Below are positions 38,234 to 54,476 of a stretch of DNA of 64,000 nucleotides, in pieces. Source of the DNA: Dongiaceae bacterium (GTDB taxonomy: Bacteria; Pseudomonadota; Alphaproteobacteria; Dongiales; Dongiaceae); assembly GCA_035274225.1 (NCBI GenBank), contig DATEOK010000250.1, forward strand, positions 1,258 to 65,257. Reading direction: 5' to 3'. A program made the position numbers and the translations under genes. How positions within the stretch are numbered: position 1 is the first letter of the stretch; the number at the start of each line of letters is the position of its first letter. The notes under the pieces were generated by a model. The model ran no database searches. It was not told where the DNA came from and saw nothing but the letters and a program-made list of their open reading frames with translations.

Positions 38234-38992
38234 CTACTCCGCCACGCTCTTCTGCTCGGCCGGGAAGGCGTAAGTGTAGACGTGGCGCTGCACGTCGCTC
38301 AAATGGCGGTACATGGTTTCGAACGCGCGCTCGCTGTTGCGCGCGGCGATCGCCTCGTAGATCTCCTGGTGCGAGGCGCTGTGCACCGATTGGCGCTTGA
38401 AGCAGTGCGCGTTCTCGCTGAGCCGGCGCCAGGTGGCGTCGCGCCGGCTGGCGCTGAGCGTGTCGAACAGGGACAGGAACAGCGCATTGCGCGCGGCCTC
38501 AGCGACGGCGCGGTGGAACTTCTCGTCGGCTTTCTCGTAGACCGCGGGGTCGGTTGCTTCCCGGGTCTCGGACACCAGCAACTGCAGGCGGCGGATGTCG
38601 GCCTGGGACGCGCGCAAGGCGGCGAGGCGCGCGATCACCGGCTCGACCGCCAGACGGACCTCGATCACTTCCAGCGGATTGGTGAATTCCAGGATGCGGT
38701 CGAACGGAATTGCAGATATGGCCGAGGCGACGGCGAGATCGCTATCGCGGGGGCGCAGCACCGTCGCGGTGGCGACCGGCGTCGACTTGTCCTGCACGAA
38801 GGTGCCGCGGCCCTGATGGCGGGTGATCTGCCCTTCCTGCTCCAGGATCTCCAGCGCGCGGCGCAGGGAGCGGCGGCCGACTCCCATCTCGTTAGCCAGG
38901 GTCCGCTCCGGCGGAATGCGTCCGCCGGCGAGCCCGCCGCTCGCGATCAGCTGCCGGAGCTTGGTCAGGGTCTGGTCTGCGTGCTGCAACAT
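38234..38992 (-). CDS. GntR family (FCD type) transcriptional regulator
   Basis: The HTH region IPPERTLANEMGVGRRSLRRALEILEQEG is present. It is divergent from the bicupin operon. Start at the ATG at 38992. Confidence 0.85.
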   Translation of the reverse strand: MLQHADQTLTKLRQLIASGGLAGGRIPPERTLANEMGVGRRSLRRALEILEQEGQITRHQGRGTFVQDKSTPVATATVLRPRDSDLAVASAISAIPFDRILEFTNPLEVIEVRLAVEPVIARLAALRASQADIRRLQLLVSETREATDPAVYEKADEKFHRAVAEAARNALFLSLFDTLSASRRDATWRRLSENAHCFKRQSVHSASHQEIYEAIAARNSERAFETMYRHLSDVQRHVYTYAFPAEQKSVAE

Positions 38993-39334
38993 GGATAGCC
39001 CCTTGTCCGCCAGTCCCGTAAGACCGATTGGTCTCACTTCGTTCGCCGGGCCGGGAACCATACCATGTGCGCAGCATGAGCCACGTTTATTGGTCCCGGT
39101 ATGGTGCAAGCCCGCGCATGCAAGGCGAATACACGCATCTTGCGGCGCAATTCGGTTGCTGTAAACCTTTCATTGCAGCGCTTGCCGGGGAAAAACGCAG
39201 AAAACGCGCGGAAACGTTTCGTCAGCACTTCACATTTTCCGGGACCAACGTAGTGCGGCTCTGCCTCGAATGGATCGCAGTTGACGGCGCTTGAGCGGAA
39301 TGGTTACGCTGTGGACCAAAGAATGACGCGGAGC

Positions 39335-39359
39335 GGGACCAATTGCGGCTGATTGGTTC
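39335..39359. promoter_or_regulatory. Candidate GntR operator (imperfect palindrome GGGACCAAT-N8-ATTGGTTCG)
   Basis: It lies 25-50 nt upstream of the bicupin ATG. The same ATTGGTC / GACCAAT word recurs at 39021-39034, 39089-39097, 39241-39249 and 39312-39320, and in the 52785-52898 divergent promoter. Confidence 0.35.
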
Positions 39360-39383
39360 GCGGCCGCGAAGCGGAGGGGGCGG

Positions 39384-40532
39384 ATGAGCGCAAACGCCAG
39401 GCCCGACGGCCACAATCACCAGGCGGCGATGGATCAGCTCCATGCCGACGTCTACGCCCGTCACATGGCGCCGTTCTGGGCGATCGACAAAAAGAACAAG
39501 AACGACGAGGACAACCAGCTGCGCGACACGCGCAAGGCGGTCCCGTTCATCTGGAAATACCGCACCGACATCGAGCCGCTGCTCCAGCGCTCGGCCGAGC
39601 TCATCAACACCGAATCCTCGGAGCGCCGATCATTGATCCTGGTCAACCCGGGCCTCGCGCCCAAGCGCGCCTCGGTCTCGACCATGTACACCGCCTATCG
39701 GCTGAACGACCCCAACGAGATCATGCCGCCGCACCGGCACTCGCCGAACGCCATCCGCCTCGGCCTGACCGGCGCGCTCAACTTCACCGGCGTCGAGGGC
39801 GAGAACATCACCTTCGGCCCCGGCGACATGGTACTGACGCCGCACGACACCTGGCACAACCACGGCAACCAGGGCAACGATCCGGCGATCAACTTGAGTG
39901 TCCTCGACCTGCCGCTGGTCGAGACCCTGAACGCCATGTATTTCGAGCATGACTACACCGAGGAAGAAGAGGGCAAGCGGGTCAAGCGCGTCATGCAGTC
40001 GGAGCGCTATTCGCCCGACTACTCGCAGCGGGTCTACGGCGCCGGCGGCCTCTTGCCGCGCTTCGTCTCGCACATGCGCGGCACCGGCAATGCCTCGCCG
40101 ATGTATGTCTATCGCTGGGACATGATGCGGGAGGCGCTGGAGAAGTTCCGCGATCACGAGGGCGACCCGTACGAAAGCATCATGATCGAGTATGTGAACC
40201 CGCTCGACGGCAAGCCGGTGTTCAAGACCATCACCTTTTTCATGCAGATGCTGCGGCCGGGTGAGCGCACCCAGCCCCTGAAGCAGACCGCCAGCCTGCT
40301 GGTGGCGCCGTTCGAAGGCCACGGCTACAGCCTGATCGGCGGCAAGCGGCTGGATTGGGAGCGGTTCGACACGTTCGCGGTGCCGGGCGGCGAATGGGCG
40401 GAGCATGTGAACGCCTCCGACCGCGAGCCGGCGATCCTGTTCGTGGCGAGCGACGAGCCGACCCTGAAGTCGCTGGCGCTGTACCAAAAGCACGGGCGCA
40501 TGAAGAACGGCGAGGTGGTGCGCCTCTACTGA
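39384..40532 (+). CDS. Gentisate/salicylate 1,2-dioxygenase-like bicupin
   Basis: 382 aa, with the N-terminal cupin metal motif PPHRHSPNAIRLGL...GDMVLTPHDTWHNH. A GGAGGGGG SD lies upstream. Confidence 0.8.
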   Translation: MSANARPDGHNHQAAMDQLHADVYARHMAPFWAIDKKNKNDEDNQLRDTRKAVPFIWKYRTDIEPLLQRSAELINTESSERRSLILVNPGLAPKRASVSTMYTAYRLNDPNEIMPPHRHSPNAIRLGLTGALNFTGVEGENITFGPGDMVLTPHDTWHNHGNQGNDPAINLSVLDLPLVETLNAMYFEHDYTEEEEGKRVKRVMQSERYSPDYSQRVYGAGGLLPRFVSHMRGTGNASPMYVYRWDMMREALEKFRDHEGDPYESIMIEYVNPLDGKPVFKTITFFMQMLRPGERTQPLKQTASLLVAPFEGHGYSLIGGKRLDWERFDTFAVPGGEWAEHVNASDREPAILFVASDEPTLKSLALYQKHGRMKNGEVVRLY

Positions 40533-40568
40533 GTCCGACGCCGCCCTTTTTCACTGCGCAAGATCACC

Positions 40569-41696
40569 ATGGCCCGATCCAAGAACACCAAGCTGCTCGC
40601 GAATTTCGACTGCCCCGGCGGCGGCCAGGTCTGGGTCGTCGGCACCACGCTCTATGTCGGCCACATGCGCCAGCCGACCGGCACCAGCATTGTCGACGTC
40701 TCCGACCCCCGGAACCCCAAGCTGATGGCGCATGTCGAGGTCCCGCAAGGCTGGCATTCGCACAAGGTGCGGGTCGCCAACGACGTGATGATCGTCAATC
40801 ACGAGAAGCAGGGGCCGGACGGTGACGCTTCGTTCGGCGGCGGGCTCGGCATCTACGACGTGTCGAAGCCGTCGCAGCCCAAGCTCATCACCAAGTGGCG
40901 CACCCACGGCAAGGGCGTGCATCGCTACGATTTCGACGGCCGCTACGCCTACGTCTCGCCGACCGCCGAGGGCTATGTCGGCAACATCTGCATGATCCTC
41001 GACCTCAAGGACCCGGCGAAACCGGAAGAGGTTGGGCGCTGGTGGATTCCCGGCCAGTGGAAGGCGGGCGGCGAGGAGTATCCGTGGGAGAACTGGACTC
41101 CCCCGCGCTGCCATCACCCGATGCGCCGCGGCAACCGGCTCTATGTCAGCTACTGGCACCACGGCTATTACATCCTCGACATCTCGGACATGGCGAAGCC
41201 GAAGCTGGTTTCAGGCGGCAACACCTCGCCGGCCTATCCGCACCCCACGCACACCTGCCTGCCGATGCCCAACAAGCTGAAGGGCCGCGACATCATGGTG
41301 GTGGCGGACGAGGACGTGGCCAAGCTGTGGCCGGCGCCGCCGGCCTTCACCTGGATCTACGACATCACCAACGAGCATTGCCCGGTGCCGATCTCGACCT
41401 GGCAGGTCGAGGGGCTGGACAAGGACGGCTCGCCGCAGCCCGCCATGATGGGCTGCCATCAGCCTTCTGAACGGTTCAAGGGCACCGTCATCCCGTTCGC
41501 CTGGTTCGCACAGGGCCTCCGGATCCTGGATATCGCCGATCCCTATGCGCCGAAGGAGATCGCGTTCTACGAGCCGGACCCGCCGCAGGGCTTCGACCTA
41601 TCCTCTTCGAACGATGTCACGATCGACGATCGCGGGTTATGCTACCTGATCGACCGCCAGCGCGGCGTCGACATCATCGAAACGTCAGTGTTGTAG
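40569..41696 (+). CDS. LVIVD-repeat-like beta-propeller protein (no signal peptide)
   Basis: Repeated h-h-V-x-D/h-Y-V motifs occur (GTSIVDVSDP, GLGIYDVSKP, ICMILDLKDP, YYILDISDM, LRILDIADP). It is His/Cys rich. Confidence 0.6.
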   Translation: MARSKNTKLLANFDCPGGGQVWVVGTTLYVGHMRQPTGTSIVDVSDPRNPKLMAHVEVPQGWHSHKVRVANDVMIVNHEKQGPDGDASFGGGLGIYDVSKPSQPKLITKWRTHGKGVHRYDFDGRYAYVSPTAEGYVGNICMILDLKDPAKPEEVGRWWIPGQWKAGGEEYPWENWTPPRCHHPMRRGNRLYVSYWHHGYYILDISDMAKPKLVSGGNTSPAYPHPTHTCLPMPNKLKGRDIMVVADEDVAKLWPAPPAFTWIYDITNEHCPVPISTWQVEGLDKDGSPQPAMMGCHQPSERFKGTVIPFAWFAQGLRILDIADPYAPKEIAFYEPDPPQGFDLSSSNDVTIDDRGLCYLIDRQRGVDIIETSVL

Positions 41697-41706
41697 GGAG
41701 ATATCC

Positions 41707-42096
41707 GTGAGCGGCGACAACAAGGACATCCACACCATCGGCAAGAAGGGGACGCTGCCGTTCCATCCGGCCGTGCGCGCCGGCGACTTCATCTTTGTGT
41801 CGGGACAAGTCGCCAAGGACGAGAACGGCAACATGTGTGCCGGCAACATCGAGGACGAGACGCGCTGGACCATCGAGGGCATCAAGCGGATCCTGGCGCT
41901 GGACGGCGCCGACCTCTCGGATGTCGTGAAAGTGACCGTCTATCTCGAAGACGCGCGCAACTTCGGGCGCTACAACAAGGTGTTCGCGGAATACTTCCCG
42001 GACGGGCGGATCAGCCGCACCACGGTCGAGGCGCGCGCCGTCATCGAGTGCAAGATCGAAATGGATGCAGTCGCGTACAAACCGCGACGCGGGTAG
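41707..42096 (+). CDS. RidA/YjgF/TdcF family protein
   Basis: It contains AGDFIFVSGQV, VKVTVYL and RTTVEA motifs. The GTG start follows an AGGGAG SD. Confidence 0.85.
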   Translation: MSGDNKDIHTIGKKGTLPFHPAVRAGDFIFVSGQVAKDENGNMCAGNIEDETRWTIEGIKRILALDGADLSDVVKVTVYLEDARNFGRYNKVFAEYFPDGRISRTTVEARAVIECKIEMDAVAYKPRRG

Positions 42097-42152
42097 CCAA
42101 GCGGGCGCAAATGCGTCCGGCAGGGTTGGTATAACGCGAGGGAGGTGGGAGC

Positions 42153-42758
42153 ATGCTGCGGCTTCTCGGCCGGAACACGTCCGGCAATGTCCAGAAGGTC
42201 ATATTCCTGCTGGAGGAATTGGGCACGCCCTACACGCGCGAGGATTACGGGCGGCAGTTCAACAACACCCAGGACGCGGCCTACCTGAAGCTCAATCCCA
42301 ACGGCAAGGTGCCGACGCTGGTCGACGGCGATGCCGTGATCTGGGAATCGAACACGATCCTGCGCTATCTCGCCAGCAAGCATAAGAAAGAGACGCTCTA
42401 TCCGAGCGGGCTCGCGGCGCGCACCGAGGTCGAGCGCTGGATGGATTGGGTGCTGGCCGCCGTCAACTATCACTACGTCGCTGTGTTCAAGGATTCGAAG
42501 AAGGCCGCGAATGAGCGCGCCGCGAGCTTCGAGGCCGATGCCAAGGAACTGGCGGCGCAGCTCTCGATTCTCGACGGGGCGCTGGCGGGCAAGGCATGGA
42601 TCGCGGGCAAGGACTTCACCATCGCCGACGTGGCGCTGGGCCCGATCATGCACCGGTGCCTGGACTTCCCGATCGCGCTGCCGGCGCTGAGCAACCTCAA
42701 AGCCTGGCGCGAGAAGCTGCGGGAACGGCCCGCGTTCAAGAAGGCGACTGGAGCGTAA
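42153..42758 (+). CDS. Glutathione S-transferase
   Basis: The thioredoxin-like N-domain motif NPNGKVPTLVDGDAVIWESNTILRYL is present. Confidence 0.85.
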   Translation: MLRLLGRNTSGNVQKVIFLLEELGTPYTREDYGRQFNNTQDAAYLKLNPNGKVPTLVDGDAVIWESNTILRYLASKHKKETLYPSGLAARTEVERWMDWVLAAVNYHYVAVFKDSKKAANERAASFEADAKELAAQLSILDGALAGKAWIAGKDFTIADVALGPIMHRCLDFPIALPALSNLKAWREKLRERPAFKKATGA

Positions 42759-42791: not shown

Positions 42792-42906
42792 CTGTCATCC
42801 CGGCCGAGCGCAGCGAGAGCCGGGACCCATGCCATTTCGCCGAGGCGTTGACAGATCGCATGGGGTCCCGGGTCATGCCGCTGACGCGGCCTGCCCGGGA
42901 TGACAG
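42792..42906. repeat. Type A palindromic intergenic element (CTGTCATCCCGG...CCGGGATGACAG), copy 1
   Basis: An outer inverted repeat CTGTCATCCCGG / CCGGGATGACAG encloses an inner inverted repeat CCGGGACCCAT / ATGGGGTCCCGG. Further copies lie at 46659-46795 and 58994-59107. Confidence 0.7.
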
Positions 42907-42986: not shown

Positions 42987-43901
42987 ATGGCTAAGGCAGC
43001 GGTAGTTGGTCTGGGAACCATGGGTCCGGGTCTGGCGCAGACGTTGGCGCGTGCGGGCATGGAAGTGACCACGTTCGATGTCAGCGAGGATCAGCGCAAG
43101 AAAGCGCCGGAAGGCATCGAACTCGCGAACAAGGTGCTGACCGCGCTCGGCGTGCCGGACCGCAGCAAGGCGCCGGTCAAGATTGCCGGCTCGCTGAAGG
43201 AATGTCTCGACAGCGCCACCATGGTGGTGGAGACGGTGCCGGAGAAGCTCGACATCAAGGCGGCGGTGTTCAAGGAAATCGACGCGCTGGTTGGCAAGAA
43301 TTGCATCATTGCCAGCAATACGTCGGGCATCCCGATCACCAAGCTGCAAGAAAATGTGTCGGCGCCTGAGCGGGTGGTCGGCATGCACTGGTCCAACCCG
43401 CCGCACATCATCCCGATGATTGAGGTGATCGCCGGTGACAAGACCTCCAAGGAGACCGTCCAGTGGATGGTCTCCACCATCAAGGACCTCGGCCTGCTGC
43501 CGGTGGTGGTGCAGAAGGACGTGCCGGGCTTCGTCGAGAACCGCGTGCTCTATGCGCTGCTGCGCGAGTGCGTCGACCTGGTGGACCAGGGCGTGATCGA
43601 TGCCGAAGGACTGGATACCTGCGTGTCCTGGGGCATCGGCTACAAGCTGTCGGTGATCGGCCCGATGGCGCTGCTCGACATGGCCGGCCTCGACATCTAT
43701 CAGGCGGTCGGCTCTTATCTGAACAAGGAATTGTGCAACCGGGGCGACCTCAGCCCCTACGTGACCGAGCGCACCAAGGCGGGCAAGCTGGGCATGAAGA
43801 CCGGCAGCGGCGTCTTCAGCTACACGCCGGAGAAGATCGCCGAGCTGCGCGGCCTGCGCGCCAAGCGCCTGGTCGCGGTGAGGAAGGCGCTCGAGAGTTG
43901 A
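42987..43901 (+). CDS. 3-hydroxyacyl-CoA dehydrogenase family NAD-dependent dehydrogenase
   Basis: The Rossmann motif VVGLGTMGPGLA is present, together with MHWSNPPHIIPMIEVI and PGFVENRVLYALL motifs. Confidence 0.85.
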   Translation: MAKAAVVGLGTMGPGLAQTLARAGMEVTTFDVSEDQRKKAPEGIELANKVLTALGVPDRSKAPVKIAGSLKECLDSATMVVETVPEKLDIKAAVFKEIDALVGKNCIIASNTSGIPITKLQENVSAPERVVGMHWSNPPHIIPMIEVIAGDKTSKETVQWMVSTIKDLGLLPVVVQKDVPGFVENRVLYALLRECVDLVDQGVIDAEGLDTCVSWGIGYKLSVIGPMALLDMAGLDIYQAVGSYLNKELCNRGDLSPYVTERTKAGKLGMKTGSGVFSYTPEKIAELRGLRAKRLVAVRKALES

Positions 43902-43981
43902 TGGGGAAGCGCTGAACCCCAGCATGCGTGGCGTAGAACAAGCGTGAACAAGTGGGGACAAAGACAGGAAGGAAACGGGCT

Positions 43982-45025
43982 ATGAAGACGAAGACACTCT
44001 GGACATTGGCGCAGGTCTCGCTGCTTGCGCTGAGCTTGGGCGGCATCGCTCAGGCGGCGGATGTGAAGAGCATCGCCGTGCTGACACCGGAAGATCCGAC
44101 CGACTACGGCTGGAACCAGCAGGGCCACGACGCCGCGAAGGCGGTGGCGGAAAAGTACGGGCTGGAATTCATCCCGGCGACCGGCCTCGGCTATGGCGAC
44201 GTGCATCCGGTGCTGCGCGAGCTGGCCGATGACGGCGCCGGCCTCATCATCGCGCATGCCAGCGGCTACAACACCGCCGCGCCGGAAGTCGGCGCCGAGA
44301 AGAAAGTGCCGGTGGCGATCGTCGACCGTCCCGACGCCAACAAGGCGGGCGCGGTTGCGGACTACACGCTGAGCGGGCATGAAGGCGCGTACCTCGCCGG
44401 CGTGCTGGCGGCCAAGACCACGCAGACCAAGTCGGTCGGCATCGTCGTCTCGGGCGAGCCGCCGTCCTGGAACTCGCAGTCGGCCGCGTTCGCGCAGGGC
44501 GTGAAGGCGACCGACGGCAGCGTCAAGGTGCTCTATGCCGTGATCGGCCCAGCCGCCTATTCGGATGCGGCGGGCGGCAACCGCGTCACCGCTTCGGTCA
44601 TCGGCGCGGGCGCCGACGTGATCTTCGGCCAGGGCGACGGCGCCACTTTCGGCATGCTGCAGGCGGTCGAGACCGGCAAGTCGACCAGCGGCGGCAAGGT
44701 CTGGTTCATCGACGTGATCGGCGACAAGACCTCGATCGACAAGGGCAACCTGCTGTCGTCGGTGGTGTGGAACCTGGTGCCGGTCTATTCGGCGATGGTC
44801 GAGGATCTGAAGGCCGACAAGTTCGGCACCAAGGGCTACTCGATCCAGCTGTCGGACGATTCGGTGCAGCTGCTGAAGACCAAGCACATCCCGGACGATG
44901 TCTGGGCCCAGGTGTCTTCGGTGCGCGACCAGATCGTCAAAGGCGAGCTGAAGATCGAGCCGGTCTGGGAAGCCGACAAGGTGCGGGCGCTGATGACCTC
45001 GGTCACCGACGCACCCGCTCAATAA
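43982..45025 (+). CDS. BMP-family (PF02608-like) ABC transporter substrate-binding protein
   Basis: A signal peptide ends in AQAAD. DYGWNQQGHDA and GIVVSGEPPSWNSQ motifs are present. Confidence 0.85.
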   Translation: MKTKTLWTLAQVSLLALSLGGIAQAADVKSIAVLTPEDPTDYGWNQQGHDAAKAVAEKYGLEFIPATGLGYGDVHPVLRELADDGAGLIIAHASGYNTAAPEVGAEKKVPVAIVDRPDANKAGAVADYTLSGHEGAYLAGVLAAKTTQTKSVGIVVSGEPPSWNSQSAAFAQGVKATDGSVKVLYAVIGPAAYSDAAGGNRVTASVIGAGADVIFGQGDGATFGMLQAVETGKSTSGGKVWFIDVIGDKTSIDKGNLLSSVVWNLVPVYSAMVEDLKADKFGTKGYSIQLSDDSVQLLKTKHIPDDVWAQVSSVRDQIVKGELKIEPVWEADKVRALMTSVTDAPAQ

Positions 45026-46658: not shown

Positions 46659-46795
46659 CTGTCATCCCGGGCAAGCGAAGCGCGACCCGGGACCCATGCG
46701 GCATCAGCCGGTGCTCCGCCATTTGCGGCTTTGCATGCTTCTCGATCGCATGGGTCCCGGCTCTGCGCCACTGCGTGGCTTGGCCGGGATGACAG
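46659..46795. repeat. Type A palindromic intergenic element, copy 2 (inside the ABC operon)
   Basis: It has the same CTGTCATCCCGG...CCGGGACCCAT / ATGGGTCCCGG...CCGGGATGACAG architecture with a longer centre. It fills the ATPase-permease spacer. Confidence 0.7.
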
Positions 46796-46804: not shown

Positions 46805-47911
46805 ATGGCGGTCGGCTGGGGTTTGCTCATGACCGCCGAGGTGCAGGTTGCGCAGCGAGGTGCGCCGCGGAATGAGCGGGGACGCGAGGTTGCTGCCTCT
46901 ACCCTGCGCGTGCTGGTGCCGATCCTGCTGGCGCTGATCGTCGGCGGCGTCATCCTGCTGATCCTGGGCAAGGATCCGCTCGCCTATTACGGCTATGTGG
47001 TCAAGCGCGGCCTCCTCACCTGGGGCGGGTTGCAGGAGACGTTGACGCGCATGTCGCCGCTGCTGCTGATCGCGGCCGGGCTCATCGTCGCGTTCCGCGC
47101 GGGTATCTGGAATCTCGGCGGCGATGGGCAGTTCCTGCTCGCTGCCGTCATCACCGCGGCGCTGGCGCCGGCCCTGGTCGGCGTGGTGCCGAAGCTCGTC
47201 ATCCTCATCGCCTGCATGATCGCCTCCGCGCTCGTGGCGGCACTGTGGGCGGTCATCCCGGCGATCCTGAAAGCGCGCTATGGCATCAACGAGATCATCA
47301 CCTCGCTGATGATGAGCTTCCTCGGCATCAGCTTCGCCAACGTGCTGGTGAAATTGCTGTTCTGGGACCCCGCGACAACGGTGCCGCAGACCCGCACTCT
47401 GCCGGTCGAGGACCGCCTGCCGCGCCTGTTCGACACGACGATCCATAGCGGTGTGTTGATCGCGCTTGCGGTCGTGGTGCTGGTGCACTTGATGATGACG
47501 CGCACGTCGTTCGGGCTGAAGCTGCAGGTGGTCGGCGCCAATCCCGCCGCCGCCGTGCATGCGGGCCTCAATGTCGCGTGGCTCACGATAGCGACCTTCA
47601 CCTTGAGCGCGGCGCTGATCGGACTCGGTGGATCGGTGGAGATCCTCGGCGTGTTCGGCACGGTGCGTGCCGACTGGAACCCGGCCTTCGGGCTGTTGGT
47701 GGTGCCGTTGGTGTTCCTGGCGCGCTTCAACGGCTACGCGGTGATCGGCTTCACCTTGTTCTTCTCGGTGCTGATGATCGGCGGTGACAGCGCGGCGCGG
47801 CGCATCGGGGTGCCGCAACATTTCGTGCTGGTGCTGGTGGCGCTCCTGCTGCTGTTCCTGGCGGTGGTCGAGTATCTCGATCACCAGCGCCGCAAGCGGA
47901 TCGGGGCCTGA
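46805..47911 (+). CDS. ABC transporter permease (BMP-type system)
   Basis: Polytopic protein with a NLGGDGQF motif. The start is ATG at 46805 or ATG at 46829. Confidence 0.85.
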   Translation: MAVGWGLLMTAEVQVAQRGAPRNERGREVAASTLRVLVPILLALIVGGVILLILGKDPLAYYGYVVKRGLLTWGGLQETLTRMSPLLLIAAGLIVAFRAGIWNLGGDGQFLLAAVITAALAPALVGVVPKLVILIACMIASALVAALWAVIPAILKARYGINEIITSLMMSFLGISFANVLVKLLFWDPATTVPQTRTLPVEDRLPRLFDTTIHSGVLIALAVVVLVHLMMTRTSFGLKLQVVGANPAAAVHAGLNVAWLTIATFTLSAALIGLGGSVEILGVFGTVRADWNPAFGLLVVPLVFLARFNGYAVIGFTLFFSVLMIGGDSAARRIGVPQHFVLVLVALLLLFLAVVEYLDHQRRKRIGA

Positions 47912-47914
47912 TCG

Positions 47915-48850
47915 ATGGACGTGCTGCTGAACGAAGCCTTCCTGACCACGCTGCTGTTCGGCGCGGTGACGGCCGGCGTGCCTTTATTGCTGGCCGGCCT
48001 CGGCGAGCAGATCTCGGAAAAGGCCGGCGTGCTCAATATCGGCATCGAAGGCATGATGCTGTTCGGCGCTTACACCGGTTTCGTCGCAGCATACTATAGC
48101 GGCTCGTTCGCGCTGGGGTTCATCGCTGGCGGCATCGGCGGCGCGCTGGTCGCGTCGCTGGTCGTCCTCCTGTGCATCCGATTCGGTCTCAACCAGATCG
48201 TGATCGGCATCGCTGTCACGCTCGGCATGGAAGGGCTGACGGCGCTGCTGCATTATTTCCAATTCAGCAAGACCTATCCGCGCTTGGACCAGGCGCCGGT
48301 CTGGGCGCTGCCGGGCTTGAGCGACATCCCGGTCATCGGGCGCGCCCTCTTCAGCCACAACTCGGTCGTCTATCTGGCGATCCTGCTGATGATCGCGCTC
48401 GGCTGGCTGTTCCGCGCGACCTATGTCGGGCTGAACCTGGAAGCGGCCGGCGACAAGCCGGCGGCGCTGGATGCGGCCGGCGTCAGCGTGGTGAAGACGC
48501 GCGCTTTCGCGGTGCTCGCGACTGGATTCCTGTCCGGGGTCGGCGGCGCCTACATGGCCAATGTCGGCGCAGGACTGTTCGTGCCCTTCATGACCGGCGG
48601 CGCCGGCTTCATCGGCATCGTGCTGGCCATGCTGGCGCGTGGGCGTCCGGTCTGGGTGCTGCTCGGCGCGGCGCTGTTCGGCATCAGCCTCGCCATGACC
48701 ACGGCGCTGCAGGTGGCTGGGATCAATATCCCGACCGACGTGGTGCAGATGCTGCCCTTCGCGATGGTGATGCTGGTGCTGGTGATCTTCGCGCGGCACA
48801 GCGTGCTGCCGCCGGCGCTCGGCCTGCCCTATGTGCGCGGGGAGCGTTGA
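47915..48850 (+). CDS. ABC transporter permease (BMP-type system, second subunit)
   Basis: 311-aa polytopic protein with a NIGIEGMMLFGA motif. It starts 3 nt after the previous stop. Confidence 0.85.
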   Translation: MDVLLNEAFLTTLLFGAVTAGVPLLLAGLGEQISEKAGVLNIGIEGMMLFGAYTGFVAAYYSGSFALGFIAGGIGGALVASLVVLLCIRFGLNQIVIGIAVTLGMEGLTALLHYFQFSKTYPRLDQAPVWALPGLSDIPVIGRALFSHNSVVYLAILLMIALGWLFRATYVGLNLEAAGDKPAALDAAGVSVVKTRAFAVLATGFLSGVGGAYMANVGAGLFVPFMTGGAGFIGIVLAMLARGRPVWVLLGAALFGISLAMTTALQVAGINIPTDVVQMLPFAMVMLVLVIFARHSVLPPALGLPYVRGER

Positions 48851-48905: not shown

Positions 48906-49718
48906 ATGGCCGACACGAAAGTCTATCTGCTCGACGGCGGGTCGCTGGTGATCGACGGCTTCCATGCCTTCTGGAACCGCGGGCCGGGCGGCGAGCTGCG
49001 CTTCCCATGCTACGCCGTGCTGGTCGACCATCCGGATGGGCGCTACATGTTCGACACTGGCTACGACTTCGACCACGTCATGCGTGTGCTGCCGTTCGAG
49101 AAGCCGATCCAGGACAAGAGCCAGACCATCCCCGGCCTGCTCGCCGGCATCGGGCTCAAGACCGACGACGTCAACTACGTCATCAACTCGCACTACCACT
49201 TCGACCATTGTGGCGGGAACAAGCACCTGCACAAGGCCTGCACCATCTGCCACGCCAAGGAGCTGGAGCAGAGCGGCAACTGCCAGCCGTTCGAGCATCT
49301 CGGCTATTCCGACCTCACCTTCGCGCCGGAGCTGCACAAGAAGAAGAATGCCGGCAAGGAGCTGCCGCCCGATCCCGCGCTCGACATGTACACGCCGAAG
49401 TTCCAGACCTTGACCGGCGACCAGGAGATCGCCAAGGGCCTGTGGCTGTTCGAGACGCCCGGCCACACCGCCGGCCACTACAGCCTGATGGTGGAGCTGA
49501 AGAACCGCCGCCCGATGCTGTTCACCGCCGACGCGTGCTACAGCAAGAAGAACATGGACATGATGTGCATCTCCAGCTTCCACCTCGACCCGACTGCCAG
49601 CGTGAAGTCGCTGCACCGGCTGAAGGAGCTGGCGGCGAAGCACGATGCCGAGCTGTTCTACTCGCACGACCCGGAGAGCTTCAAAGGGTACCGGACGGGC
49701 GGAAACTACTATTCCTGA
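48906..49718 (+). CDS. Metallo-beta-lactamase-fold lactonase (AHL-lactonase / 4-pyridoxolactonase-like)
   Basis: The HxHxDH motif occurs in SHYHFDHCGG, followed by a later TPGHTAGH. A GGGAGAGGA SD lies before the ATG at 48906. Confidence 0.8.
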   Translation: MADTKVYLLDGGSLVIDGFHAFWNRGPGGELRFPCYAVLVDHPDGRYMFDTGYDFDHVMRVLPFEKPIQDKSQTIPGLLAGIGLKTDDVNYVINSHYHFDHCGGNKHLHKACTICHAKELEQSGNCQPFEHLGYSDLTFAPELHKKKNAGKELPPDPALDMYTPKFQTLTGDQEIAKGLWLFETPGHTAGHYSLMVELKNRRPMLFTADACYSKKNMDMMCISSFHLDPTASVKSLHRLKELAAKHDAELFYSHDPESFKGYRTGGNYYS

Positions 49719-49849: not shown

Positions 49850-49889
49850 TTGAGAGAGACCGATTGCGAGCTTGCACGAGAGGCAAACA

Positions 49890-50192
49890 ATGCCCTGGAT
49901 GATCGTCAGCGACGATGCCCCCAATGGCGCGGCGATCCGCGCCGACCGGACCGTCATGGATGCGCACTGGGCCTACGAATTGTCGATCAAGCACAAGATC
50001 CTGTGCGCGGGCAGCCTGCGGACCGACGATGGCGTCACGCCGATCGGCAGCCTGCTGGTGCTGGATGTCGGCACGCGCACGGAGGCGATGGCGATCATCA
50101 ACGCCGACCCGGCGACCAAGGCCGGCCTGCGCGGCAAGATCACCGTGACGCGCTGGAACAAGGCGATCTTCGGCGGCGTCGTTTCCGACTGA
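49890..50192 (+). CDS. YciI family protein
   Basis: About 100 aa, with HWAY...GSL and DPATKAGL motifs typical of YciI-like proteins. Confidence 0.75.
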   Translation: MPWMIVSDDAPNGAAIRADRTVMDAHWAYELSIKHKILCAGSLRTDDGVTPIGSLLVLDVGTRTEAMAIINADPATKAGLRGKITVTRWNKAIFGGVVSD

Positions 50193-50194
50193 GG

Positions 50195-50875
50195 CTATTT
50201 CCCACCCGCGTCCCGGATCAGCGTGGCGATCGCGTCGTAGCGGCGCTCGCGGGCATGCTGCAGCGGCGTGACGCCGTCCTTGTCGGCGATGTTGGGGTCG
50301 GCGCCGGCGGCGAGCAGCAGGCGCACGATCTCGACGTGGCGTGCGCCGCCGTCGCTGAGGATCACCGCCTCGAGGAGGCCGGTCCAGCCGAGATTGTTGA
50401 TGTGGTTGACGTCGATCTTGGAGCGCTCCAGCAGCAGGCGCACGGTGTCGACATGGCCACGCTCGCAGGCGGGGATCAGCGCATTGCCGCCATAGCGGTT
50501 GCGGATGATGTAGTCGACCTTGCCGGTCTCCAGCATCGCCGCCAGCATCCCGGTGTGGCCGAGCGCGCCGGCCAGCAGCCAGGGCGTGTCGTGGTTCAGC
50601 GCCTCGGCATTAAGGTCGGCGCCACGCTTGATCAGATCGAGCGCCAGCGCTAGGTCATTGTGGTGTACTGCGAACAGCAGGGCGGTCTGGCCGTGATTGT
50701 CGCGCGCGTCGATTGCGGCGCCAGCACCCAGCGCCGCCGTGACACCGGCGGCGTCATCGCGGCTGGCGGCGGTCAACAGGGCTTGATCGGCAGCGGTATC
50801 AGCCATGGCAACTCCGATGGCGAGCCAAGCGGCCGCGGCGATGGCCGCGCGTCTACCAGCGCACCATGCCGGCAT
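50195..50875 (-). CDS. Exported ankyrin-repeat protein
   Basis: A signal peptide ends in AMADTA. At least four ANK repeats are present (GQTALLFAV...LIKRGADLN; GNALIPACERGHVDTVRLLL; GVTPLQHA). The start overlaps the SDR 3' end by 23 nt. Confidence 0.75.
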   Translation of the reverse strand: MPAWCAGRRAAIAAAAWLAIGVAMADTAADQALLTAASRDDAAGVTAALGAGAAIDARDNHGQTALLFAVHHNDLALALDLIKRGADLNAEALNHDTPWLLAGALGHTGMLAAMLETGKVDYIIRNRYGGNALIPACERGHVDTVRLLLERSKIDVNHINNLGWTGLLEAVILSDGGARHVEIVRLLLAAGADPNIADKDGVTPLQHARERRYDAIATLIRDAGGK

Positions 50876-51593
50876 CGACGGCGAGCGCCTGGCCGGTGAT
50901 CCAGTGCGCTTCCTCGGATGCGAGGAAGGCGACCGCCGGCACGATGTCGGCCGGCTTGCCGACGCCCTTGATGGCTTGCAGCATCTCGACGAAGCCGAAG
51001 GCTTCCTTGTGCGGGGTCTGCTGCACGCCCTCGGTGTCGGTGAGGCCGGGGCACACAGAGTTGACGGTAATCTTGTGGCCGCCGAGCTCGGTCGCCAGCG
51101 CGCGGGTGAAGGTCAGCACGCCGCCCTTGGAGGCGACATAGTGCGCCATGTTGGGCGTGCCGGCGAAGATCGAGTTGGAGCTGAAATTGACGATGCGGCC
51201 GTAGTTGTTCTTGCGCATCAGGTCGGAGCCGGCGCGGCACATCAGGTACAGGCCGTCCAGGTTGACACGCAGGACGCGGCGCCATTCCTTGAAGGTCAGC
51301 TCGTCCCATTTCACGAACGGCACGATCGCGGCGTTGTTCACCAGCACATCGAGCTTGCCGCACTTGGAGGCGACGGCCTGGAACAGCTTGCCGACCGCGT
51401 CCTCGTCGCCGATGTCGCACGCCATGCCGAAGCTCTTGCCGCCGATCGCCTTGGCGGTGGCGTTGGCGCCATCGCCGTTGATGTCGACCGCGACCACTGT
51501 CGCGCCCTCCTGGCCCAGGCGCTCCGCGACGGCGCGGCCCATGCCTTGCGCCGCGCCCGATACGACCGCGACGCGACCTTCAAATCTGCGCAT
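50853..51593 (-). CDS. SDR family oxidoreductase
   Basis: It contains the Rossmann motif VSGAAQGMG, NNAA and the catalytic YVASK. An alternative ATG lies at 51605. Confidence 0.85.
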   Translation of the reverse strand: MRRFEGRVAVVSGAAQGMGRAVAERLGQEGATVVAVDINGDGANATAKAIGGKSFGMACDIGDEDAVGKLFQAVASKCGKLDVLVNNAAIVPFVKWDELTFKEWRRVLRVNLDGLYLMCRAGSDLMRKNNYGRIVNFSSNSIFAGTPNMAHYVASKGGVLTFTRALATELGGHKITVNSVCPGLTDTEGVQQTPHKEAFGFVEMLQAIKGVGKPADIVPAVAFLASEEAHWITGQALAVDAGMVRW

Positions 51594-51614
51594 GCTCTCC
51601 CCCATGATTGGAAA

Positions 51615-52784
51615 TCAGCCCTGGATGACTTGCAGCGCGGCGTCGATGCCCGCCGCGACGTCGACCTTGCGCCCGAGCCGGCGCAGCGCGCCGCCCAGCG
51701 CGGTGAGCGCGACGGTGGCATAGATCGGCTCCGCGACAGGGCCCATGTGGCCGATGCGGATCAGCTTGCCCTTGGTCTCGTTGCGGCCGGATGAGAACAC
51801 CACGCCGAACTCGGCGCGCGCCGCTGCGATGACCTCTTCGTCGCCCACTCCCGCCGGTACGCGCACGGCGGTGCAGGTGGGCGAAGCGATGCCCTCGGTC
51901 TTAGCCCACAGCTCCAGGCCCATGGCCTTGATGCCGGCACGGCAGGCGCGTGCGGTCAAGCCGTGCCGGCGCCAGACGTTCTCCGGCCCTTCGTCGAGAT
52001 ACTGATCGAGCGCGCCGTCGAGCCCATTGATCTCCGCGACCGAGGGCGTGAAGGGAAACGGCTTCTCCTTGCTCCAGGCGTTCTTCCAGTCCTTGAGGCT
52101 GAGGACCGAGGCGAACGGCGCCTTTGGGTTGGCCTCGACATGTTTCCAGGCGCGCTCGCTGACCGACATGATGGTGAGCCCCGGCGCGCCGCCCAGGCAC
52201 TTGCCGGGGCCGGTGATGAAGATGTCGGCGAAGCAATCGTCCGGATGGATGTCCATGCCGCCGAAGGAGGAGACGGCGTCGACGATCAGCAGCCCGTCAT
52301 GCTCGCGCACGATCTTGCCGATCTCGCGCGCGGGATTGATGGTCCCCGACGGCGTGTCGTGGTGGACCAGGGAGACGACCTTGATGTCCGGCCGCTTGCG
52401 GAAGGCGTCCGCCACCTGGCCGGGATCGATCGCCTCGTTGTACGGGACCTCGATCTCCACCATGTCCTTGTGGTAGCGCGCCGACCAGTAGCCGAAGCCC
52501 TTGCCGTAGACGCCCGAGGCGAGGTTGAGGACGGTGTCGTTGGGCGAGATGAGGGACGCGGCGGCAGCCTCGATCCCGGGCGCCGGCTCGACCTGCAGGA
52601 TCAGCGCCGGGTCCTTGACCTTGAGGGCGGCCGCACATTTGCGGGTCACGTCCTCGTAGAACTGCTGGAACCAAGGATCGAAGTCGTACTGCACCGGGCG
52701 CGACATGGCGCGCAGGACGCGCGGATAGGCCGCGACTGGTCCGGCGGACAGGGTGATGACCGGTTCCTTGATCCTGGATGCCAT
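51615..52784 (-). CDS. Class V (AGT-like) PLP-dependent aminotransferase
   Basis: 389 aa, with VDAVSSFGG and a candidate PLP lysine in ITGPGKCLGG. It is divergent from the GMC oxidoreductase gene. Confidence 0.85.
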   Translation of the reverse strand: MASRIKEPVITLSAGPVAAYPRVLRAMSRPVQYDFDPWFQQFYEDVTRKCAAALKVKDPALILQVEPAPGIEAAAASLISPNDTVLNLASGVYGKGFGYWSARYHKDMVEIEVPYNEAIDPGQVADAFRKRPDIKVVSLVHHDTPSGTINPAREIGKIVREHDGLLIVDAVSSFGGMDIHPDDCFADIFITGPGKCLGGAPGLTIMSVSERAWKHVEANPKAPFASVLSLKDWKNAWSKEKPFPFTPSVAEINGLDGALDQYLDEGPENVWRRHGLTARACRAGIKAMGLELWAKTEGIASPTCTAVRVPAGVGDEEVIAAARAEFGVVFSSGRNETKGKLIRIGHMGPVAEPIYATVALTALGGALRRLGRKVDVAAGIDAALQVIQG

Positions 52785-52898
52785 GGTTGCAAGCCCCCGC
52801 AGCGGTTTTCTTGCTTCTTGCTTGGTTCATCGATCATAGACGCAGGCCCAAAAAAGTGGAAACAATATCCGCAATGGGGCGGCATTGGTCCGGCGGGG

Positions 52899-54476
52899 AT
52901 GACATCCGGTTCCGACGATTGGTTCGACATCCTGGTGATTGGTTCAGGCACCGCGGGCTCGGTGCTGGCCGCGCGCCTCAGCGAGGATGCGGATGTTTCG
53001 GTCGGCCTCATCGAGGCCGGAGGCGCTGCGGTCGATCCGCGCATCGCCGAGCCGGCGCAATGGCCGTTGCTGCAAGGCAGTGCCATCGACTGGGCCTATC
53101 GCACGATCCCGCAGCCGCATACCGCCAACCGCGTGCACGAGTGGGCGCGCGGCAAGGTGATCGGCGGCTCGACCGCGCTCAACGCGATGGCGCATGTGCG
53201 CGGTCACCCGGACGACTTCGATTCATGGGACTGCGCCGGCTGGGGCTATGCGGACCTGATGCCGTATTTCCTGCGCTCGGAGCACTACACGCCGGGCGCC
53301 AACGCGCACCACGCGGTTGGCGGACCGCTGCACTTGATCCGCCCGACCGCGCCGCATCCGGTGACCGAGGCCTACATGGCTGCCGGCGCGGAGATCGGAA
53401 TTGCGCCGACCGACGATCACAACGGCGCGCGCATGACAGGCCCGTGCCTCAACACGCTCACCATCAAGGACGGTAGGCGCCAGACTATCGCCGATGCCTA
53501 TCTCGCACCGGCGCTCGGGCGGCGGAACCTGCATCTGATGGCGGAGACGCAGGTGCTGTCGCTGACCCTGCAGGGTAGTCGGTGCGCGGGCGTACGTATC
53601 GCGGATCGCAGCGGCGAGCGCGAGATCATGGCCCAGCGCATCATCCTTGCGGCGGGCACGATCGCCTCGCCCATGCTCCTGATGCGCTCGGGCATCGGTG
53701 CGGCAGATGACTTGCGCGCGCTGGGCATCGCCGTGCATCACGACCTGCCCGGCGTTGGGCGCAACCTGCACGACCATCTGCTCAGCGGCGGCAACGTCTA
53801 TCGCGCGCGCCGGCCGGTGCCGCCGTCGAAATACCAGAACTCGGAATCGCTGATGTATGTCGCGCGTGATGCCGCTGCGGGCGCGCCGGAGCTGGTGCTG
53901 GCCTGCGTCATTGCGCCGGTGACGACGGAGCGCTTCGCGCCCCTGAAGCTGGGCGAGGCCTATTCAATCATGTTCGGCTTCACCCATCCGCGCAGCCGCG
54001 GCACACTGAAGCTGGCGAGCGCCGATCCCGCTGCCGCGCCGCTGATCGATCCCAATTATCTGGCCGAGGCATACGACCGCGAGATCTATCTCGATGCGCT
54101 GGAGCGGGCGCGCGCGGTCGGTCGGTCAGGCGCGCTCTCCGACTGGCGGCTGCATGAGTACCTGCCCGGCCCATCGGTGCGGACGACGGCCGCGAAGCGC
54201 GCGTTCCTGGAGCAGGCGGCCTTCACGCATCATCATCCGGTCGGCACTTGCCGCATGGGCGCCGATGAAGAGGCGGTCGTCGGAGCCGATCTCGCCGTGC
54301 GCGGTTTCGACAATCTCTTTGTATGCGATGCCTCCATCATGCCGGCGATCACCACCGGGCCGGTCAATGCGGCGATAGTCGCGATCGCCGAACGCTTCAG
54401 CGACCTCATGCGTGGCCGCGCGCCGCTCGCGCCGTATTTGCCCGCCACCGCGCCCGTGGTACAGAGGCGCGCATGA
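52899..54476 (+). CDS. GMC family FAD-dependent oxidoreductase
   Basis: The N-terminal FAD motif DILVIGSGTAGSVLAARLSE, GGSTALNAM and the C-terminal HHPVGTCRMG are present. Confidence 0.9.
   Translation: MTSGSDDWFDILVIGSGTAGSVLAARLSEDADVSVGLIEAGGAAVDPRIAEPAQWPLLQGSAIDWAYRTIPQPHTANRVHEWARGKVIGGSTALNAMAHVRGHPDDFDSWDCAGWGYADLMPYFLRSEHYTPGANAHHAVGGPLHLIRPTAPHPVTEAYMAAGAEIGIAPTDDHNGARMTGPCLNTLTIKDGRRQTIADAYLAPALGRRNLHLMAETQVLSLTLQGSRCAGVRIADRSGEREIMAQRIILAAGTIASPMLLMRSGIGAADDLRALGIAVHHDLPGVGRNLHDHLLSGGNVYRARRPVPPSKYQNSESLMYVARDAAAGAPELVLACVIAPVTTERFAPLKLGEAYSIMFGFTHPRSRGTLKLASADPAAAPLIDPNYLAEAYDREIYLDALERARAVGRSGALSDWRLHEYLPGPSVRTTAAKRAFLEQAAFTHHHPVGTCRMGADEEAVVGADLAVRGFDNLFVCDASIMPAITTGPVNAAIVAIAERFSDLMRGRAPLAPYLPATAPVVQRRA

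Follow-up and report, generated by a model that had tools for sequence, protein, structure and literature searches.

A probable vitamin B6 catabolic island with a candidate bicupin-based lower pathway in a Dongia-like alphaproteobacterium

How would vitamin B6 be degraded by a bacterium that carries recognisable upper-pathway genes next to a gene set foreign to the established lower pathway? This question is raised by positions 38234-54476 of a 64 kb stretch of DNA (the window) from a soil bacterium, a Dongia-like alphaproteobacterium. Pyridoxine degradation pathway I of Mesorhizobium loti MAFF303099 comprises pyridoxine 4-oxidase (PNOX), pyridoxamine-pyruvate aminotransferase (PPAT), tPLDH, 4-pyridoxolactonase, 4-pyridoxic acid dehydrogenase, FHMPC dehydrogenase, HMPDC decarboxylase, MHPC oxygenase, AAMS amidohydrolase, and PyrR. 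We propose, with a probability of roughly 70%, that the region is a vitamin B6 catabolic island in which the known upper part of this pathway is joined to an undescribed lower one.

The upper pathway and its transporter

The preliminary description had named six genes of the M. loti type, and all six lie where it placed them, belong to the right families, and are real open reading frames with high GC3. Comparison of the upper-pathway enzymes with PDB entries (bits, identity) and NCBIfam equivalog cutoffs yielded five clear orthologues of characterised M. loti enzymes at 48-65% identity, with the M. loti protein leading the PDB matches by a wide margin in every case, which together with the curated equivalog scores backs the B6-catabolic reading for the upper pathway. 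The PNOX-like GMC flavoenzyme (52899-54476, forward strand) has M. loti PNOX as its best PDB match (4ha6; 487 bits, 48% identity, runner-up 293 bits) and is 35-37% identical to a separate 4-pyridoxic acid dehydrogenase-like GMC group. PPAT, a class V aminotransferase (51615-52784, reverse strand), matches 2z9u (555 bits, 65% identity, runner-up 150 bits) and equivalog NF046070 (651, cutoff 600). As in M. loti, its gene adjoins that of an SDR-type pyridoxal 4-dehydrogenase (50853-51605, reverse strand), which matches 3ndr (292 bits, 56% identity) and NF047923 (418, cutoff 325). The MBL-fold 4-pyridoxolactonase (48906-49718, forward strand) pairs with 3aj3 (364 bits, 56% identity, runner-up 94 bits) and NF047925 (476, cutoff 325). 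The HADH-family FHMPC dehydrogenase orthologue (42987-43901, forward strand) resembles 4om8 (386 bits, 59% identity, runner-up 153 bits), has the same MHWSNPPHIIPMIEVI stretch, and scores marginally under the NF042925 cutoff (496 against 500). Scores thus exceed the equivalog cutoff for PPAT, the SDR dehydrogenase, and the lactonase, and also for all four subunits of a transporter.

Homology shows a predicted route in which the PNOX-like oxidase and PPAT produce pyridoxal from pyridoxine and pyridoxamine, the SDR dehydrogenase turns pyridoxal into 4-pyridoxolactone, and the MBL lactonase takes this on to 4-pyridoxic acid. On the same footing, the FHMPC dehydrogenase orthologue would convert FHMPC to 3-hydroxy-2-methylpyridine-4,5-dicarboxylate (HMPDC). 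The four genes between those for FHMPC dehydrogenase and the lactonase, on which the preliminary description was silent, are all on the forward strand and are NCBIfam 'putative B6 ABC transporter' equivalogs, each above its cutoff: a BMP-family substrate-binding protein (43952-45025; NF047927, 478 against 400), an ATP-binding protein (45052-46623; NF047930, 816 against 670), permease 2 (46805-47911; NF047929, 561 against 400), and permease 1 (47915-48850; NF047928, 552 against 465). Their homology shows a dedicated BMP-type ABC transporter, predicted to import B6 vitamers, and classical M. loti-type clusters carry a transporter of the same type.

One step of the classical route, 4-pyridoxic acid to FHMPC, lacks a candidate gene in the window, a gap that the preliminary description had overlooked. 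Unlike M. loti, this locus has no 4-pyridoxic acid dehydrogenase, the pathway's second GMC enzyme, in the window, nor do its closest relatives within 10 kb, so the genes of this locus do not make up a full route to FHMPC; in about 25 related loci this gene lies immediately beside the genes discussed below. The step may be encoded outside the window, or may be carried out by FHMPC dehydrogenase or the PNOX-like enzyme.

A conserved four-gene cassette in place of the classical lower pathway

The preliminary description had reported no MHPC oxygenase, decarboxylase, or AAMS hydrolase, and this holds for the whole 64 kb window: tblastn with classical-locus queries returned no match at E<=1e-3 for MHPC oxygenase, the class II aldolase-type decarboxylase, or an alpha/beta hydrolase, and no AAMS hydrolase was found. 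The genes that it listed as present instead are real, and where M. loti has decarboxylase, MHPC oxygenase, and AAMS hydrolase, this locus has four forward-strand genes arranged as an operon directly 5' of FHMPC dehydrogenase. They encode a gentisate/salicylate 1,2-dioxygenase-like bicupin (39384-40532; Pfam Cupin_2), predicted to be an Fe(II) ring-cleaving dioxygenase; a 375-residue LVIVD-repeat beta-propeller (40569-41696; Pfam LVIVD), predicted to be a metal-dependent hydrolase; a RidA-family enamine/imine deaminase (41707-42096; Pfam Ribonuc_L-PSP); and a glutathione S-transferase (GST; 42153-42758; Pfam GST_N, GST_C), possibly a GSH-dependent isomerase or accessory enzyme.

Among 80 related genome loci retrieved via FHMPC dehydrogenase, the bicupin-LVIVD pair adjoins that gene in 77, in the orders BIC>LVI>(Rid>GST>)FDH or BIC>FDH>LVI, and these loci span Dongiaceae, other Rhodospirillales, Kiloniellales, Hyphomicrobiales, and Steroidobacteraceae, that is, two proteobacterial classes. 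About ten contain BIC, FDH, and LVI alone, in variable surroundings. In Oricola and Mesorhizobium sp. the cassette lies between the genes for 4-pyridoxic acid dehydrogenase and FHMPC dehydrogenase, and the order in loci L078 and L080 (PNOX< gntR< PADH> BIC LVI Rid GST FDH>) places it inside a B6 operon. The three loci without the cassette all come from Martelella and encode a genuine MHPC oxygenase (688 bits against 3alj/3gmb), along with the hydrolase and the class II aldolase. The reverse search, via MHPC oxygenase, retrieved 56 metagenome loci; none of the 36 that were at least 7 kb long held a bicupin or LVIVD gene, and 28 of these 36 had PNOX, PADH, or both, arranged as in classical clusters (in locus L084 the intervening genes encode an alpha/beta hydrolase, a PEBP-like protein, and a class II aldolase). 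Searched from both directions, the bicupin cassette and the MHPC oxygenase cassette are mutually exclusive.

A candidate regulatory sequence also links the cassette to the upper pathway. A GntR/FCD-family regulator (38234-38992, reverse strand; Pfam GntR, FCD) is divergent from the bicupin operon, as in 42 related loci (gntR< BIC>), and M. loti likewise has a GntR-family regulator beside its cluster; identity to the regulators at the equivalent position in Mesorhizobium and Oricola loci is only 32-36%. The intervening promoter region (38993-39383), a candidate operator, holds six copies of ATTGGTCC/GGACCAAT with at most one mismatch, including the inverted pair GGACCAAT-N8-ATTGGTTC at 39336-39359. 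Exact copies of the motif number only three in the 64 kb, two of them here and the third, a ATTGGTCC copy at 52884-52891, in the divergent PPAT/PNOX promoter region (52785-52898). Across genomes, motif matches reach 96 against 10.2 expected in the gntR/bicupin intergenic region (42 loci) and 18 against 2.3 in the PPAT/PNOX intergenic region (22 loci), and the operator-like motif is common to both promoter regions. Acting at these ATTGGTCC-type candidate sites, the adjacent GntR protein probably regulates the bicupin operon together with the PPAT/PNOX promoters.

Predicted chemistry of the cassette

The best PDB matches of the bicupin are 2d40 and 3bu7. The three Fe-binding histidines H117, H119, and H158 are invariant in its family (99 members), as are R81, R125, and H160, the equivalents of Arg83, Arg127, and His162 in gentisate/salicylate dioxygenases, so that the three-His iron site and the catalytic Arg and His residues known from gentisate and salicylate/5-aminosalicylate 1,2-dioxygenases are both retained. 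The bicupin is about one third identical to these enzymes and scores far under the family cutoffs (gentisate dioxygenase, 209.5 against 442; 5-aminosalicylate dioxygenase, 215 against 650), and R106, N170, and S172, invariant in the 99 members, replace the Gln108, Trp172, and Asp174 that are invariant in gentisate dioxygenases. These Gln-to-Arg, Trp-to-Asn, and Asp-to-Ser changes in the pocket are what one would expect if the substrate bears an additional carboxylate.

The gentisate pathway consists of gentisate 1,2-dioxygenase, a GSH-dependent maleylpyruvate isomerase, and fumarylpyruvate hydrolase, and the cassette follows a similar dioxygenase-GST-hydrolase logic. This resemblance, the JGI name of the bicupin ('gentisate 1,2-dioxygenase'), several other ring-cleavage genes in the window, and the fact that MHPC oxygenase absence was scored only over the window and over 10 kb either side of each related locus could suggest that a module for gentisate- or salicylate-type aromatic acids, with no relation to B6, happens to lie beside the B6 genes, and that the classical lower pathway is located elsewhere in the genome. 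We consider this very improbable given the linkage in 77 of 80 loci over two classes, the placement in L078 and L080 with a B6 gene on either side, the strict two-way exclusion, the motif shared with the PPAT/PNOX promoter, the low gentisate dioxygenase score, and the loss of three residues found in all gentisate dioxygenases. The cassette also contains no fumarylpyruvate or maleylpyruvate hydrolase: its hydrolase would be the LVIVD propeller where the gentisate pathway uses an FAH-family enzyme, a RidA deaminase is added, and the presumed substrate is a pyridine. The GST likewise differs, since assignment to the zeta class, which is known to isomerise maleylpyruvate, was rejected (maiA score 56, cutoff 171); its nearest PDB entries, 4kh7 and 4iel, are GSTs whose records give no specific function.

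Our best reading is that the bicupin would cleave HMPDC, in an undescribed alternative lower pathway. Its preference for HMPDC over 4-pyridoxic acid or FHMPC is drawn from gene linkage and the three pocket substitutions only. Enzymes of the gentisate/salicylate dioxygenase class need an ortho-hydroxy-carboxylate, which all three intermediates offer, and direct cleavage of 4-pyridoxic acid would make the dehydrogenase missing from the window and closest relatives irrelevant. It is nevertheless unlikely that the cassette serves B6 catabolism by cleaving 4-pyridoxic acid or FHMPC, with the FHMPC-dehydrogenase homologue acting on a side branch or a ring-opened aldehyde: FHMPC dehydrogenase is the tightest link to bicupin and LVIVD, including in the three-gene minimal loci, some 25 loci do have 4-pyridoxic acid dehydrogenase right beside the cassette, and the Gln-to-Arg and Asp-to-Ser changes are more in keeping with a dicarboxylate than with an alcohol or aldehyde.

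The LVIVD protein has 3495 database relatives, named, where at all, only 'hypothetical' or 'LVIVD repeat-containing', and numerous His, Cys, Asp, and Glu residues are invariant across its family; no obvious signal peptide was seen when its N-terminus was read by eye. In a fold search, its AF2 model (pLDDT 84, pTM 0.87) matched best 5hrm, the Sphingobium sp. TCM1 phosphotriesterase (E 5e-17, TM 0.72; remaining matches about 1e-8), and 5hrm/5ioj was the sole PDB match of its sequence profile with E below 1 (1e-10). That enzyme is a seven-bladed beta-propeller hydrolase with a binuclear metal centre and similar LVIVD-like blades, but the LVIVD protein is 18% identical to it and about 120 residues shorter, and a phosphotriester is an implausible substrate for a B6-linked protein. 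Since its function is read from fold similarity, and nothing fixes the order of the LVIVD and bicupin steps, LVIVD might act first, for example as an HMPDC decarboxylase leaving the 4-carboxylate, with the bicupin then cleaving the monocarboxylate; the classical pathway, too, decarboxylates before it opens the ring. This reversed order is quite unlikely, as the one protein that resembles LVIVD strongly, in structure and in sequence, is a hydrolase rather than a decarboxylase, and the bicupin pocket has gained one positive and lost one negative charge, as expected with the second carboxylate still in place.

In the proposed route through HMPDC, this intermediate would be neither decarboxylated nor opened by the flavoprotein MHPC oxygenase. 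The bicupin would bind its ortho-hydroxy-carboxylate on Fe(II) and cleave the C3-C4 bond with O2, giving an open-chain N-substituted 2-iminopropanoate, which the LVIVD propeller, as a predicted metallohydrolase, would hydrolyse. RidA may then accelerate the hydrolysis of the imine/enamine set free in this step, yielding ammonia and a 2-oxo acid (pyruvate). It has the fold and conserved Arg of 2-iminopropanoate deaminase RidA and of 2-aminomuconate deaminase (6izh, among its matches), a precedent for RidA proteins taking nitrogen off ring-fission products; R104, which aligns with the Arg of the archaeal homologue 2dyy, is presumably the catalytic Arg. The protein falls below the TIGR00004 cutoff (77.5 against 106), and its role is putative. 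The GST may serve as a GSH-dependent isomerase, by analogy with gentisate breakdown, or have some other accessory function. The core would consist of three proteins (bicupin, LVIVD, and FHMPC dehydrogenase), and RidA and GST would be dispensable helpers.

Linkage, two-way exclusion, and position between B6 genes give strong comparative backing to the suggestion that the decarboxylase and monooxygenase steps are taken over by the bicupin set; the substrate of the bicupin, the reactions that follow ring cleavage, and growth on or induction by B6 are inferred. The bicupin/LVIVD/RidA/GST set is uncharacterised and conserved, has counterparts in numerous other bacteria, and probably opens the pyridine ring by chemistry other than that of the textbook enzymes.

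Gene content and a motif common to two promoter regions

The B6 island (38234-54476) begins with gntR on the reverse strand. Forward-strand genes follow for a gentisate-dioxygenase-like bicupin, an LVIVD propeller protein, RidA, a glutathione S-transferase (GST), FHMPC dehydrogenase (FDH), four ABC transporter subunits, a lactonase and a YCII-family protein; ankyrin-repeat, SDR and aminotransferase genes then lie on the reverse strand, and a forward-strand GMC oxidase gene closes the set. Real genes were picked by third-position G+C and families were assigned with Pfam and NCBIfam, and every gene listed in the preliminary description was found at its coordinates. The kinship proposed there with the characterised Mesorhizobium loti enzymes is borne out for all five enzymes, whose best solved relative is the M. 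loti enzyme with the next match far behind: pyridoxine 4-oxidase (PNOX; PDB 4ha6, also 3t37; 487 bits, next 293; 48% identity), FDH (4om8; 386, next 153; 59%), pyridoxamine-pyruvate aminotransferase (PPAT; 2z9u; 555, next 150; 65%), pyridoxal 4-dehydrogenase (PLDH; 3ndr; 292, next 199; 56%) and 4-pyridoxolactonase (3aj3; 364, next 94; 56%), with identities counted from the alignments.

NCBIfam equivalog cutoffs are passed by PPAT (651, cutoff 600), PLDH (418, cutoff 325) and the lactonase (476, cutoff 325). FDH, at 496, falls 4 bits short of the NF042925 cutoff of 500, and NCBIfam has no model for pyridoxine 4-oxidase. All four transporter subunits exceed the cutoffs of the 'putative B6 ABC transporter' equivalogs (478/400, 816/670, 561/400 and 552/465), so this transporter has already been tied to B6 clusters by curators. 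The upper pathway is known biology.

The spacer between gntR and the bicupin gene holds six ATTGGTCC-like sites, including one inverted pair at 39336-39359. Exact copies of ATTGGTCC number three in the window, two in this spacer and one 8 bp ahead of the PNOX start, in the divergent PPAT/PNOX region. Both spacers are rich in the motif in related loci too: the gntR-bicupin spacers of 42 loci contain 96 occurrences where 10.2 would be expected, about a ninefold enrichment, and the PPAT-PNOX spacers of 22 loci contain 18 where 2.3 would be expected, about an eightfold one; the loci are akin and intergenic composition is unlike coding, so that binomial P values overstate the significance. The presence of one motif in both promoter regions suggests that the bicupin cassette and the upper pathway form a single regulon. 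A generic promoter and terminator scan returned nothing above chance.

The stretch has several further features. The ankyrin-repeat gene (50195-50875, reverse strand, 226 aa) shares 23 bp with the end of the PLDH gene and seems to be transcribed together with PLDH and PPAT, an odd component for a catabolic operon; among related loci, only the closest three (L004, L006 and L011) have a counterpart, and the same three alone share the YCII-family gene (49872-50192, forward strand) 3' of the lactonase gene. A nested palindrome some 115-140 bp long is found at 46659-46795 and again at 58994-59107, with a partial copy at 42810-42881; its outer arms read CTGTCATCCCGG...CCGGGATGACAG and its inner arms CCGGGACCCATG/CATGGGTCCCGG, the inner arm occurring 6 times against 0.65 expected. 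Within the B6 operon, copies occupy otherwise unexplained gaps, one separating the ATPase gene from the permease genes and one separating GST from FDH; the element looks like an intergenic repeat of the REP/MITE type. At the UDP-glucose dehydrogenase gene (56425-57753), the high-GC3 frame (56600-57433, 277 aa) encodes the N-terminal domain only and is overlapped by a 442-aa ORF in a different frame; the locus may represent a frameshift or a pseudogene. Further on (59110-61790, reverse strand) lie an FAH-family hydrolase gene and a homogentisate-dioxygenase-like (HgmA-like) gene, with a divergent MarR regulator. All three were left out of the B6 cassette and probably form a ring-cleavage module of their own; they fall outside the 10-kb flanks fetched for related loci.

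Two mutually exclusive lower cassettes

The classical lower route of M. loti comprises a decarboxylase for 3-hydroxy-2-methylpyridine-4,5-dicarboxylate (HMPDC), MHPC oxygenase and AAMS amidohydrolase. The preliminary description had reported an MHPC oxygenase, a class II aldolase-type decarboxylase and an AAMS amidohydrolase as missing, and tblastn of the entire 64 kb likewise finds none. Neither an MHPC oxygenase query, whose identity was confirmed by a 688-bit match to the M. loti structure (3alj/3gmb), nor alpha/beta hydrolase and class II aldolase-type decarboxylase queries from classical loci gave a match at E<=1e-3 at any point in the window.

We collected 80 genome loci around the closest FDH relatives, from at least 541, and mapped the cluster genes by tblastn. 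The bicupin and LVIVD genes adjoin FDH in 77 of the 80, and the classical decarboxylase, oxygenase and hydrolase set is missing from the same number within 10 kb on each side. The majority order is that of the window: gntR reversed; bicupin, LVIVD, RidA, GST, FDH, the transporter genes (sbp, atp, p2, p1) and lactonase forward; PLDH and PPAT reversed; and PNOX forward. Carriers span Dongiaceae, other Rhodospirillales, Kiloniellales, Azospirillaceae, Hyphomicrobiales (Mesorhizobium sp. M1322, Oricola, Segnochrobactrum and Pseudoxanthobacter) and the gammaproteobacterial Steroidobacteraceae. In Oricola and the Mesorhizobium sp., reversed PNOX and gntR genes are followed by forward genes for 4-pyridoxic acid dehydrogenase (PADH), bicupin, LVIVD, RidA, GST and FDH, so that two recognised B6 genes bracket the four cassette genes. 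The loci without the cassette, three in number, are all from Martelella and carry an MHPC oxygenase, a hydrolase, a class II aldolase and PADH-FDH in the cassette's place.

The reverse set consisted of 56 metagenome loci around MHPC oxygenase, 36 of them at least 7 kb long. PNOX and/or PADH flank the oxygenase in 28 of these 36, the classical arrangement, and FDH and the same transporter come after it where the contig extends. One such locus (L084) has reversed PNOX and gntR genes, then alpha/beta-hydrolase, MHPC oxygenase, an ORF, PEBP, class II aldolase, PADH and FDH genes forward. A bicupin or LVIVD gene was found in none of the 36. Exclusion in both directions indicates that the two cassettes are alternatives within one conserved frame, and as judged from gene content the swap is a classic signature of non-orthologous replacement. 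Classical clusters have an unassigned 209-aa ORF after the MHPC oxygenase gene; a homologue of it, 40-50% identical, is found in six bicupin-type loci (L013, L016, L032, L049, L059 and L076), and it may be an accessory gene common to both pathway variants.

About ten alphaproteobacterial loci from MAGs (including L044, L050-L056 and L058) carry only bicupin, FDH and LVIVD genes, in that order and on one strand; their flanks vary and are uninformative, and the surrounding 10 kb contains no further B6 gene. These loci argue that the three genes are the functional core and that RidA and GST are helpers; the trio may serve to scavenge 4-pyridoxic acid or a similar catabolite that is excreted.

One upper step lacks a gene in the window, a gap that the preliminary description does not mention. 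PADH is the second, membrane-associated GMC enzyme of the M. loti-type pathway, and the second GMC enzyme adjoining FDH in classical loci is taken, by position, to be PADH. Used as queries, the PADH proteins of L078 and L084 hit nothing in the window but the PNOX-like gene, at 35-37% identity. Some 25 related loci have PADH beside the cassette, whereas it is missing from the window and, within 10 kb, from its closest relatives. A run of further dioxygenase-type genes just upstream of gntR (34560-37639) comprises genes for a DOPA 4,5-dioxygenase family protein, a pirin, a 314-aa ORF without a Pfam match and an intradiol Dioxygenase_C protein; the last, 197 aa with a signal-peptide-like N-terminus, sits at the position held by PADH in other Dongia genomes. 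Neither these four nor an upstream radical SAM gene offers a plausible dehydrogenase as a PADH stand-in, and only Dioxygenase_C is shared, solely with the closest relatives. The gene for converting 4-pyridoxic acid to FHMPC may lie elsewhere in the genome, or the PNOX-like enzyme may be bifunctional and close the gap. Since M. loti FDH also reduces FHMPC to 4-pyridoxic acid, the orthologue here might, by analogy, run both oxidations.

A candidate ring-cleaving dioxygenase and its partners

The bicupin is about one-third identical to gentisate 1,2-dioxygenases and scores well below the family cutoffs (209.5 against 442 for TIGR02272; 215 against 650 for the 5-aminosalicylate dioxygenase model). 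We aligned 99 members of the family with two gentisate dioxygenases of known structure and read them against the catalytic and pocket residue roles in salicylate and gentisate dioxygenase given in PMC11264262. The Fe ligands H117, H119 and H158 are invariant in all 99 sequences, as are R81, R125 and H160 (equivalent to Arg83, Arg127 and His162) and the Ala125 equivalent. In contrast, Gln108, Trp172 and Asp174, which PMC11264262 gives as common to every gentisate dioxygenase, are replaced by invariant Arg106, Asn170 and Ser172. The bicupin thus matches gentisate 1,2-dioxygenase in its Fe, Arg and His catalytic set but differs in pocket residues and family score. On this alignment it retains the machinery for cleavage between carboxyl-bearing and hydroxyl-bearing ring carbons, and its distal pocket is predicted to have lost one negative charge and gained one positive.

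The ortho-hydroxy-carboxylate required by such an enzyme is borne by 4-pyridoxic acid, FHMPC and HMPDC; a second carboxylate is found in HMPDC alone, which is the product of FDH. Because of this second carboxylate, and because FDH is the most tightly linked gene, we infer that HMPDC is the substrate of the bicupin.

The LVIVD protein has 375 aa, and its N-terminus reads without an obvious signal peptide. Its family comprises at least 3495 database clusters, where named only 'hypothetical' or 'LVIVD repeat-containing'; the top 120 matches share at least 73% identity and almost all have 375 aa, give or take one residue, and many His, Cys, Asp and Glu residues are invariant in the family. An AlphaFold2 model (pLDDT 84, pTM 0.87, about 30 strands) has as its best Foldseek match the Sphingobium sp. 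TCM1 phosphotriesterase (5hrm; E 5e-17, TMq 0.72), with other propellers at about 1e-8, and a sequence profile finds 5hrm/5ioj at E 1e-10 and no other match with E below 1. The phosphotriesterase is described as a propeller of seven blades that has a binuclear metal centre, and the LVIVD model resembles it in this fold. A metal-dependent hydrolase is the best reading of the predicted structure.

In RidA, R104, the predicted active-site Arg, aligns with the Arg of an archaeal homologue, the TIGR00004 score is 77.5 (cutoff 106.25), and relatives include a ring-fission deaminase, 2-aminomuconate deaminase. Membership of GST in the zeta class is ruled out by its score of 56 against a cutoff of 171 for TIGR01262 (maleylpyruvate/maleylacetoacetate isomerase), and the structures closest to it are of GSTs whose depositions name no specific function.

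A possible third route of B6 breakdown

We propose that the pyridine ring of HMPDC is cleaved by a gentisate-dioxygenase-type non-haem iron enzyme and that an LVIVD propeller metallohydrolase then acts on the product. This would make a third bacterial route of B6 mineralisation, widespread in soil and rhizosphere Alphaproteobacteria and maybe commoner than the M. loti route; we put this reading at somewhat below even odds, roughly 45%. By analogy with salicylate and gentisate cleavage, the bicupin would cut HMPDC at C3-C4 to give HOOC-C(CH3)=N-CH=C(COOH)-CO-COOH, an N-vinyl ketimine of pyruvate similar to the classical intermediate acetamidomethylene-succinate. The LVIVD enzyme would hydrolyse this compound to 2-iminopropanoate/2-aminoacrylate, and would also free a formyl-oxaloacetate-type fragment that could collapse to central metabolites. 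The iminopropanoate/aminoacrylate pair is the textbook substrate of RidA, which yields pyruvate and ammonia, and the cassette's RidA would perform this conversion. GST could isomerise a double bond in the fashion of the gentisate pathway or clear reactive by-products. RidA and GST would merely speed otherwise spontaneous steps, which fits the existence of loci without both genes.

We rate the region as encoding a known pathway whose lower branch is new and draws on two enzyme families without an assigned function. A literature search, with most subscription journals outside its coverage, found no account of the cassette in B6 catabolism; a 2026 preprint on B6 catabolites deals with the upper steps only, and in NCBIfam neither the bicupin nor the LVIVD protein has a model that gives it a B6 role.

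The DNA itself has 62-70% G+C; its FDH gene is 96% identical to a Dongiaceae MAG copy and 94% to that of Dongia deserti, near-identical DNA is carried by rhizosphere, root and soil metagenomes, and some soil metatranscriptome contigs hold 6-22% of its words. The hypothesis is open to direct testing, as the substrates are commercial or enzymatically accessible and carriers are culturable. B6 catabolism is taught as two routes, each ending in a flavoprotein ring-opening oxygenase. If our proposal is correct, there would be a third, in which the pyridine ring is cleaved by a different class of enzyme, and this LVIVD subfamily would gain its first function. Two large families now labelled 'gentisate 1,2-dioxygenase', 'cupin domain-containing' or 'hypothetical LVIVD protein' would acquire functions, and gentisate dioxygenase annotations would be corrected. 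The genes would also provide a marker set for the turnover of B6 and 4-pyridoxic acid in the soil and rhizosphere metagenomes from which the near-identical sequence comes.
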